The position numbers and the translations under genes were made by a program. Below the pieces are notes generated by a model. The model worked only from the letters and a program-made list of their open reading frames with translations, was not told the origin of the DNA and searched no databases. Positions 47,439-51,574 of a stretch of DNA of 64,000 nt are shown here, piece by piece. How positions within the stretch are numbered: position 1 is the first letter of the stretch; each line of letters starts with the position of its first letter. Location: the NCBI RefSeq assembly GCF_988242995.1, contig NZ_OZ547043.1. One strand, 5' to 3'.

Positions 47439-48203
47439 ATGCAAGCATTGCTGGAACACTTTATTACCCAATCCACCGTGTATTCATTGATGGCGGTGGT
47501 GTTGGTGGCCTTTCTGGAGTCGCTGGCGCTGGTAGGTTTGATTTTACCCGGTACGGTGCTAATGGCGGGACTGGGGGCGCTGATTGGCAGTGGCGAGTTA
47601 AGTTTCTGGCACGCCTGGCTGGCAGGGATCGTCGGTTGCCTGCTGGGCGACTGGATCTCCTTCTGGCTGGGCTGGCGTTTTAAAAAGCCATTGCATCGCT
47701 GGTCATTTCTGAAGAAAAACAAAGCATTACTCGATAAAACTGAACATGCGTTGCATCAACACAGCATGTTCACCATTCTGGTCGGTCGTTTTGTCGGCCC
47801 GACGCGTCCGCTGGTGCCAATGGTGGCGGGAATGCTGGATCTCCCGGTGGCAAAATTTATTACGCCGAATATTATCGGCTGCCTGCTGTGGCCACCGTTT
47901 TACTTCCTGCCGGGGATTCTGGCGGGTGCGGCGATCGATATTCCTGCCGGGATGCAAAGTGGTGAGTTTAAATGGTTGCTGCTGGCGACGGCGGTATTTT
48001 TGTGGGTTGGTGGCTGGCTGTGTTGGCGGTTATGGCGCAGCGGTAAAGCAACCGATCGTTTAAGTCATTATTTGTCGCGCGGTCGTTTGTTGTGGCTGGC
48101 ACCGTTAATTTCTGCCGTCGGTGTAGTGGCGCTGGTGGTGTTAATTCGCCACCCGTTGATGCCGGTATATATCGATATTTTGCGGAAAGTGGTTGGGGTT
48201 TAG
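47439..48203 (+). CDS. yabI: DedA-family inner membrane protein YabI, 254 aa
   Basis: 254-aa membrane ORF matching YabI. Confidence 0.9.
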   Translation: MQALLEHFITQSTVYSLMAVVLVAFLESLALVGLILPGTVLMAGLGALIGSGELSFWHAWLAGIVGCLLGDWISFWLGWRFKKPLHRWSFLKKNKALLDKTEHALHQHSMFTILVGRFVGPTRPLVPMVAGMLDLPVAKFITPNIIGCLLWPPFYFLPGILAGAAIDIPAGMQSGEFKWLLLATAVFLWVGGWLCWRLWRSGKATDRLSHYLSRGRLLWLAPLISAVGVVALVVLIRHPLMPVYIDILRKVVGV

Positions 48204-48232
48204 GAGGTAGTTTGCATCGGCGCTGGTTTGTT

Positions 48233-48271
48233 CCCCTCACCCTAACCCTCTCCCCAGAGGGGCGAGGGGAC
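48233..48271. repeat. G/C-rich imperfect palindrome between convergent yabI and thiQ (likely bidirectional terminator or intergenic repeat)
   Basis: cccctcaccc-taaccctctccccagag-gggcgagggg inverted arms. Confidence 0.5.
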
Positions 48272-48284
48272 TGTCCGTGCGCTT

Positions 48285-48983
48285 TTAACCTTTAATCCCC
48301 AATAGTGCCGAAGCACTCGCCTTACCGCTCAACAACTCATCGGTCATACCCTGCCAGGCGATGCGCCCGTCGGCGACCACCACCGAGCGTGTGGCGATCC
48401 GCGCCGCATCTTCCACACTGTGCGACACCATCAATAGCGTCATTTTTTGCTGCTGGCAGCTCGTGCTCACCAGCGTCAACATCTCCTGACGTAACGCCGG
48501 ATCGAGCGCAGAGAACGGTTCATCAAGCAATAAAATCGGCTGTTCGCGCACCAGACAACGCGCTAACGCCACGCGCTGTCGTTGACCGCCAGAAAGCTCG
48601 CCCGGTAATCGCGCCATTAAATTATCAATCCCCATCTGGCTGGCGATAGCGTGCATTTTCTCCTGTTGTGCCGCGTTCAGCTTCAATCCTGGATTAAGCC
48701 CCAGCCCGATGTTCTGCGCGACCGTCAGGTGACTGAACAGGTTGTTCTCCTGAAACAGCATCGACACCGGACGGCGTGACGGCGGCGTAGAGGTGTGATC
48801 AACGCCGTCGATAGTCAGCGAACCGCTGGCTGGCGTCAGAAAACCGGCGATCAAATTCAGCAGGGTACTTTTACCCGCGCCGCTTGGCCCGAGGATCGCC
48901 ACCTGCTCGCCCCGTTCCACCGTTAAGCTAAAACGCATCGGCAAATGGTGGTAAAGCCAGGTGATATCAGTCAGTTTTAACAT
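48285..48983 (-). CDS. thiQ: Thiamine ABC transporter ATP-binding protein ThiQ, 232 aa
   Basis: ABC ATPase ORF (Walker [10 protein letters not shown]); start placed at [11 protein letters not shown]. Confidence 0.92.
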
Positions 48984-50577
48984 TTCGCCCCGGTAGTTTT
49001 TCAATCACGGTAAACAGCAGAAAACAGAGTAGCAGCAGAATTAACGCGGTGACCGCGCCGTCCTGGCTGCGATAGGAGCCAATTTGCTGGTAGAGATAAA
49101 ACGGCAGGGTGCGGAAATCATCGTTACCGAACAACGCCACCACGCCAAAATCACCAATCGATAGCACACAAGCAAAGGCCAGTGCCTGCGCAAGTGGGCG
49201 TTTCAGGGCGCGCAGCTCCACCACTTTTAAGCGTGACCAGCCTTCAATGCCCAGCGACTGACACAACATACTGTAACGCGCGGTGATATCGCGCATCGGG
49301 TTTTCCAGCACCTTCAGCGCATAAGGGATCGCCATTAACGCATTGGTGAAAATCACAATGCCGTCAGCAGATTGCGGCAGGCCGATAGTGTTGTTGAGCA
49401 GTAAAAAGAAGCCCGTAGCCAGCACAATCCCCGGCATGGCGAGGATCAACATGCCGCTCATCTCCAGCGCCTGACCCGCCAGCATTTTTTGCCGCACCCG
49501 CAGTTCGCGACTGCTCCATAGCAGCATCATGGTCAGCACTACGCATAATACGCCTGCCGCCAGCGCAATACGCAACGAGGTCCACAGCGCCTGCCACAGC
49601 ACCGGTTGTGCCAGCACTTCCGGCAACTGGCGATTTACCCCATCGACGAGCACCGCCAGTAACGGTGGCAGCAACAGCAACAGCGCCAGCACAATTAACA
49701 CCGTGTCGCAAATGCGGCTATGCAGACGATCGTCCGGGTCGCGCCAGCCTTGCAGCAGCGTAGTGCCGGGCGCAATGGCCTTACTCAATCGCTGACTCAA
49801 CAGCACTAGCCCGAGGCAACACACCATCTGGATCAACGCCAGCATCGCCGCGCGGGCAGGATCGTAGTCGTAACTCAGCGCCTGATAAATAGCCAGCTCG
49901 ATAGTGGTCGCCTGCGGACCGCCGCCCAGCGACAGCACGGTGGCGAAGCTGGCGAAACAGAGCATAAAGATAAGCGCAGCAACTGGCGGGATTTGTCGCC
50001 GTAACCACGGCCATTCGACGAAGCGGAAAAAATGCCAGCCACGCATCCCAAGCTGGGCGGCAAGTTGACGTTGTTCGCCGGGAATGTTTTCCAGTGCCTG
50101 AAGTAATAAACGGCTCGCCATCGGCAGATTAAAAAACACATGGGCCAGCAAAATGCCTTGCAGGCCGTAGGGCGAAAAGGTCCACTCCAGACCGAGCGAT
50201 TGGCAGAGCGATGCCAGCCAGCCCTGGCGACCATAGACGCTAAGAATGCCGAAAACAGCAACCAGCACCGGGAGGATCAAGGTCATTGCGCACAGACGCA
50301 ACAGCGCCAGCCGACCCGGAAAGCGCCTGCGATAGAGCGCGCGGGCGAGGAATATCGCGGGTACGACAGAGAGTAGCGCCGAGAGAAACGCCTGCCAGAA
50401 GGAGAAGCGCACCACATGCCACAGGTAGCTGTCCTGCCAGACTGCCGACCAGTCACCCTGCGGCGCGTTCCACCACAGGGCGAGAAACGCCGCCAGCGCA
50501 ACCGCCACCACAAGCGTAGCGGCGCTTACACCTGGAATTAACCAGCCGGGAATTAACGGCTGACGGCGCGTTGCCAT
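48967..50577 (-). CDS. thiP: Thiamine ABC transporter permease ThiP, 536 aa
   Basis: 536-aa polytopic ORF overlapping the thiQ start and thiB stop. Confidence 0.93.
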
Positions 50578-51536: not shown

Positions 51537-51574
51537 TTTGCACCTCAAAAAAGAGTGGCAAAGGACTTGAGAAG

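Follow-up and report, generated by a model that had tools for sequence, protein, structure and literature searches.

The window, a stretch of 64,000 nucleotides read along one strand, contains two convergent genes, yabI and thiQ, whose stop codons are separated by a gap of 81 bp (48204-48284). In NZ_LR778147.1 (E. coli isolate SC418), which shows 100% identity to the window here, RefSeq annotates the neighbours as yabI and thiQ as well. The TPP riboswitch on the minus strand (Table 1) is the reason for regarding thiQ as the last gene of thiBPQ. On the plus strand, the sequence runs through GGGGTTTAG at the yabI stop into GAGGTAGTTTGCATCGGCGCTGGTTTGTTCCCCTCACCCTAACCCTCTCCCCAGAGGGGCGAGGGGACTGTCCGTGCGCTTTTAACC. 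The mechanically called reading frame of thiQ (48285-49004, minus strand) begins with a TTG start 21 nt upstream of the RefSeq start and overlaps the end of thiP (48967-50577). Another reading frame of 67 aa, crossing the gap on the plus strand (48092-48295), was dismissed, being an out-of-frame tail of yabI that runs into the repeat described below.

Table 1. Genes and sequence elements at and around the yabI-thiQ gap (window positions).
Feature	Position	Strand	Basis and remarks
yabI (DedA family protein), upstream convergent gene	47439..48203	+	stop TAG, ending at 48203
Complete BoxC element of about 65 bp, in which semi-conserved flanks form an outer stem around the three-block core	48219..48283		alignment with K-12 copies, folds, allele breakpoints
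TMECO/PIT core, 36 nt, type "A mm", CCCTCGCCCCTCTGGGGAGAGGGTTAGGGTGAGGGG	48233..48268	-	exact match to the published consensus
G-rich block 2, GGGTGAGGG (plus strand CCCTCACCC)	48234..48242	-	paired with the C block in the hairpin of lowest predicted energy
Loop 2, TTA, defining type A	48243..48245	-	
G-rich block 1, GGGAGAGGG (plus strand CCCTCTCCC)	48246..48254	-	pairing with the C block would include one G-A mismatch
Loop 1, CTCTG	48255..48259	-	direct reading; most variable part among paralogues
C-rich block, CCCTCGCCC (plus strand GGGCGAGGG)	48260..48268	-	direct sequence reading
TTTT run right after the extended stem, in the yabI sense	48283..48286	+	overlaps the thiQ stop codon (48285-48287); sole terminator-like tail, sub-threshold
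thiQ, last gene of the thiBPQ operon	48285..48983	-	stop TAA, ending at 48285; 699 nt as annotated
TPP riboswitch	51567-51666	-	

Nearly all of the gap is taken up by a single element, a BoxC repeat; what remains outside it is about 15 nt next to yabI and 1 nt next to thiQ. The G/C-rich palindrome that the sequence-only reading had described between the two genes is indeed present: its inverted arms of 11 nt, TCCCCTCACCC (48232-48242) and GGGCGAGGGGA (48260-48270), are 91% complementary, and an inner pair, CCCTCT/AGAGGG, lies at 48246-48251 and 48256-48261. It is not a plain two-arm palindrome, and instead has a three-block structure, in which, on the plus strand, a tandem pair of C-rich blocks is accompanied by a G-rich block complementary to them. 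Read along the minus strand from 48268 to 48233, the order is CCCTCGCCC-CTCTG-GGGAGAGGG-TTA-GGGTGAGGG-G, while the flanks contribute an outer stem made of GGCGCTGG (48219-48226) and CCGTGCGCT (48275-48283), as seen in the folds. An alignment of the window copy with ten type-A copies of K-12 revealed 41 nearly invariant core columns between semi-conserved flanks. The outer stem formed by these flanks, though variable in sequence, was recovered in most of the 11 copies folded.

BoxC was reportedly surveyed by Bachellier, Clement & Hofnung in 1999, and the PIT element is said to have been treated by Hoyne et al. in 2000 and by Hoyne & Maher in 2002. BoxC (known since the 1990s), PIT, and TMECO are one and the same element according to PMC4666352. 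There, PIT (potential intrastrand triplex) is credited to Hoyne, Maher, and colleagues, and for the first description of BoxC the reader is referred to Bergler et al. 1992, the paper on the envM sequence. The TMECO consensus of Holder et al. 2015 (PMC4666352), CCCTCNCCC-N3-6-GGGNGAGGG-N3-GGGNGAGGG [G/T/C/-], is matched exactly at 48234-48268 on the minus strand, with the terminal G at 48233. Moreover, the 36-mer is identical over 36 of 36 positions to copies 9, 16, 19, and 22 of the 23 TMECO copies compiled for E. coli K-12 MG1655 in Table 1 of that paper, all of class "A mm", the label "mm" for the mismatched triplet being taken from the same source (PMC4666352). This identity was confirmed on DNA re-extracted from NC_000913.3, in which copy 9 lies between fabI (envM) and ycjD. 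The sequence-only reading had noted a resemblance to a family of short palindromes found between genes in enterobacterial genomes; that family is BoxC.

With this family the window copy shares the 36-nt core, the type A loop TTA, one mismatched triplet, an extragenic site, and G/C-rich palindromic flanks, imperfectly matched around the core; it differs only in location. It lies wholly between the yabI and thiQ stop codons (48204-48284) and is thus intergenic, and the family as a whole is multi-copy and dispersed. The published element length is 56 bp, and an independent survey counted 22-32 copies of about 50-56 bp in E. coli (PMC2267715). Unlike the inverted pairs of type A and type B described for K-12, the copy in the window is solo. 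No mention of the yabI-thiQ locus was found in the text of PMC4666352 or in its supplements examined. A search of 47900-48600 against Rfam at a permissive E-value gave only chance hits below threshold; the best of them, Antizyme_FSE, scored 20.3 bits (E = 0.12), where the gathering threshold is 40. Nothing contradicts the identification as BoxC. Neither the element nor its family is new, and novelty is limited to local facts.

Stable structures were predicted when the RNA of both strands was folded, in agreement with the earlier expectation of a stable hairpin on either strand. The 41-nt core reached -20.9 kcal/mol on the plus and -25.6 kcal/mol on the minus strand, and the inclusion of the flanks lowered these values to -32.9 and -34.2 kcal/mol; folded as DNA, -13.5 and -16.5 kcal/mol were obtained. 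Compared with composition-matched shuffles, the core folds are only moderately better, with z-scores of -2.35 (plus) and -2.64 (minus) and with 6 and 2 of 200 shuffles, respectively, folding as well. RNAalifold recovered the core hairpin from the 11 paralogues with 0 compensatory pairs. Since the core does not vary, this absence of compensatory changes has no bearing on selection for RNA structure, either way. Both a 20-mer of the element and the published three-block pattern occur once in the 64-kb window, versus 0 occurrences in 100 shuffles. With z-scores that are only moderate, it is the repetition of the motif across genomes that rules out a chance palindrome.

This repetition is extensive. 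Matches to a 48-nt core were found at 96,775 places in 5,425 of the 5,426 complete E. coli genomes, with a median of 19 per genome, and 99.6% of these places are chromosomal. The strain from which the window derives has 19 such places itself, one of them in the window; additional copies, for which the earlier reading had suggested a search, are numerous. Phage records, in comparison, are nearly devoid of the element (3 of 50,697), which agrees with the published lack of association with mobile elements (PMC4666352). Two records labelled Campylobacter phages A18a and A11a, MG065686.1 (141088-141139) and MG065691.1 (32984-33035), hold three places each with about 94% identity to BoxC. Such copies are odd in records of this label, and contamination or chimeric assembly may be the cause.

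The three blocks (CCCTCNCCC / GGGAGAGGG / GGGTGAGGG) recur in very distant bacteria. A consensus scan over the genomes of 100,044 species yielded at least 166 matches in at least 120 loci, a biased sample, as the pattern fixes the blocks. Distant hosts among the matches listed are Mitsuaria chitosanitabida NBRC 102408, a Ca. Methylomirabilota MAG, a Ca. Contendobacter MAG, and an unclassified MAG; nearly all of the matches listed come from one Mitsuaria genome (Betaproteobacteria), and none of them is an enterobacterial locus. The first loop differs in these distant copies (GCTTGC), and, among the matches listed, they often form plus/minus inverted pairs about 30-300 bp apart. Judging from these matches, the three-block motif extends beyond the enterobacteria, and the same is reported by Holder et al. 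(PMC4666352).

At the yabI-thiQ locus itself, BoxC is a minority allele. A 111-nt query spanning both junctions, counted at a coverage of at least 80%, detected it in 253 of the 5,426 complete E. coli genomes (4.7%). Alignment of the gap from five strains revealed three alleles, namely one with two REP elements and a gap of 113 bp in K-12 and S88, one with a single REP and a gap of 86 bp in O157:H7, and the BoxC allele with its gap of 81 bp in the window and in strain 4973. Table 1 of PMC4666352 records no TMECO for MG1655 near 72 kb and none at yabI-thiQ. The K-12 gap carries the REP head motif GCCKGATGCGRCGY twice (274-287 and 345-358 of the K-12 locus, L001); this motif has no match in 48204-48284 and 12 matches elsewhere in the window. 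Evenly spaced rows sampled from a 401-nt search showed the longer allele with K-12 spacing in most other genomes. Homology between the alleles ends at the stop codon of thiQ and, on the other side, about 8 nt past that of yabI; the intergenic segment has been exchanged as a whole. At least two flank backgrounds, differing by 4-6%, carry the BoxC allele. The 3' ends of yabI and thiQ beside the gap (47960-48203 and 48285-48545) are 91.5-99.6% identical, which is unusually divergent among ordinary E. coli strains; the value of 91.5% is that of the thiQ ends of K-12 and S88. These divergent gene ends suggest a neighbourhood that may be recombination-prone or otherwise variable.

REP/BIME elements were reportedly described by Stern et al. 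in 1984. They resemble BoxC in being short, dispersed, extragenic, G/C-rich palindromes that are often located at the 3' ends of genes, and they occupy the yabI-thiQ gap in K-12, S88, and O157:H7, but they represent an unrelated sequence family and are far more abundant. For REP elements, binding proteins have been described, and a transposase family (RAYT) is dedicated to them, whereas nothing of this kind was reported for BoxC in the literature examined. Three of the ten type-A BoxC copies of K-12 (pstA-pstB, frlR-yhfS, and fimH-gntP) have a REP within about 70 nt. The BoxC and REP families often share intergenic gaps. Elsewhere in the window, naRNA4 (CssrE), of the REP-derived family of nucleoid-associated RNAs, is called by Rfam with 77.3 bits at 35842-35921 on the minus strand, a place that also holds two paired REP motifs (35862-35904).

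The sequence-only reading had taken the hairpin for a probable bidirectional terminator, that is, an intrinsic (Rho-independent) terminator common to yabI and thiBPQ at which RNA polymerase would be released in both directions. The predicted hairpins are stable on both strands, the element is placed exactly between the two convergent stop codons, and several K-12 copies of BoxC likewise lie between convergent genes. As in an intrinsic terminator, a G/C-rich stem-loop stands at the end of a transcription unit; the BoxC stem, in contrast, is long, interrupted, and branched, and a U-rich tract, taken as at least five U in 8 nt starting 0-2 nt past the stem and expected on each strand of a bidirectional terminator, is missing. 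In the thiQ sense (minus strand), no U-tract is present: GAACAAACCAGCGCCGAUGC / GAACAAACCAGCGCCGAUGCAA comes after the hairpin, with GAACAAACC past the core and CGAUGCAA past the outer stem. On the plus strand, ACUGUCCG follows the core and UUUUAACC the outer stem; in the yabI sense, the core runs into ACUGUCCGUGCGC, and only past the extended stem are there four U, followed by AACC. A consensus scan for promoters and terminators called none in the gap; the two terminator-like sites that it returned lie inside yabI (47975-47996).

According to PMC4666352, which cites the published reporter tests of PIT elements, no terminator activity was found, and in its account of Hoyne & Maher 2002 there was neither promoter nor terminator activity nor an effect on RNA polymerase, only an arrest of polymerase in vitro. 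BoxC shows no orientation or position bias, and some K-12 copies reside upstream of genes or inside operons (pstA-pstB and yihS-yihR). Since BoxC is lacking at this locus in about 95% of the complete E. coli genomes, it cannot be the conserved terminator of yabI and thiQ. Altogether, the terminator proposal does not hold up, and we regard it as highly improbable.

A milder role at the 3' ends of transcripts is easier to accommodate, as it would be compatible with an ordinary BoxC repeat as a side effect. By analogy with REP elements, for which this action is established, the hairpin would block 3'-to-5' exonucleases and stabilise the mRNA of yabI and/or thiBPQ, and the extended stem with its UUUU may additionally bring about weak, one-way termination of yabI. 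REP hairpins fill the same gap in the other aligned strains, so that a G/C-rich hairpin exists in every allele examined; the UUUU directly follows the extended stem on the yabI strand, and in the pstA-pstB, fimH-gntP, and yihS-yihR paralogues the C-rich strand has a T-run in the corresponding position. Set against this are the invariance of the core, which leaves no covariation pointing to selection for RNA pairing, the lack of orientation bias of the family relative to genes, and the published work, as presented in PMC4666352, that found no effect on gene expression; we consider such a role unlikely. Somewhat less probable still appears an action at the level of DNA, in which the G-rich (minus) strand, when single-stranded, would fold into an intrastrand purine-motif triplex, stall DNA polymerase, and create a hotspot of small rearrangements, which would account for the differences between strains in this gap. 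Triplex formation by type A mm oligonucleotides has been shown in vitro by CD and NMR (PMC4666352), and the presumed test oligonucleotide and the window copy differ at a single base of a loop. The same authors observed that polymerase stops in vitro and that variability is higher at TMECO loci than at control loci (PMC4666352). The presence of at least three alleles at the locus, next to gene ends of the divergence given above, would fit a hotspot, but this variability is equally explicable by the REP elements or by relaxed constraint in a convergent gap. Furthermore, DMS footprinting in vivo gave no evidence of a stable triplex, a duplex forms once the complement is present (PMC4666352), and GC skew together with K-12 synteny suggests that the G-rich strand is the leading-strand template, which would be less exposed as single strand.

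That different repeat families can occupy an intergenic site as alternatives was reportedly noted by Bachellier et al. in 1997. At yabI-thiQ, one could imagine that BoxC and REP/BIME elements are functionally interchangeable or that BoxC insertion targets sites that contain REP. Because every allele examined has a G/C-rich hairpin, selection may require a structured 3' element whose family can be swapped, and such an interchangeable hairpin could hold back exonucleases or insulate the convergent transcription units from each other. We think that either version is decidedly doubtful.

The account that we favour, with a probability of roughly 0.88, is that the palindrome is a solo copy of BoxC residing in a permissive convergent gap, without a dedicated role for yabI or thiBPQ. 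The gap would be a site at which repeat families have accumulated or replaced one another. That BoxC probably has no dedicated role here follows from the negative results, as far as they are relayed in the publications cited, and from the polymorphism of the locus, although this polymorphism could also be compatible with a beneficial but replaceable role, for example with REP and BoxC both acting as 3' hairpins. If transcribed, BoxC would add a stable hairpin to the 3' untranslated ends of both mRNAs and may slow 3' exonucleases. As single-stranded DNA, its G-rich strand can adopt the intrastrand triplex in vitro, as published (PMC4666352). The general behaviour of the family, which is always intergenic, without bias in orientation, distance, or operon context, and situated in variable loci (PMC4666352), is that of a dispersed repeat, and the copy at yabI-thiQ is an ordinary one. 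Neutral decay does not readily explain the near-invariance of the 36-nt core among paralogues, which points instead to recent spread, gene conversion, or selection that is sequence-specific.

For annotation, this means that the correct label of the palindrome is BoxC/PIT/TMECO repeat and not terminator, with little significance beyond that. What is new concerns the locus: about 5% of complete E. coli genomes have BoxC there, whereas the other aligned strains have REP elements. BoxC, two REPs, and one REP between the same convergent stops form a natural allelic series, which could be used to study the effects of repeats on mRNA 3' ends, on convergent transcription, and on local genome stability. 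Questions about the effects of BoxC date from the 1990s onward, and the mildly useful point of this locus is that it offers an allelic series for them.
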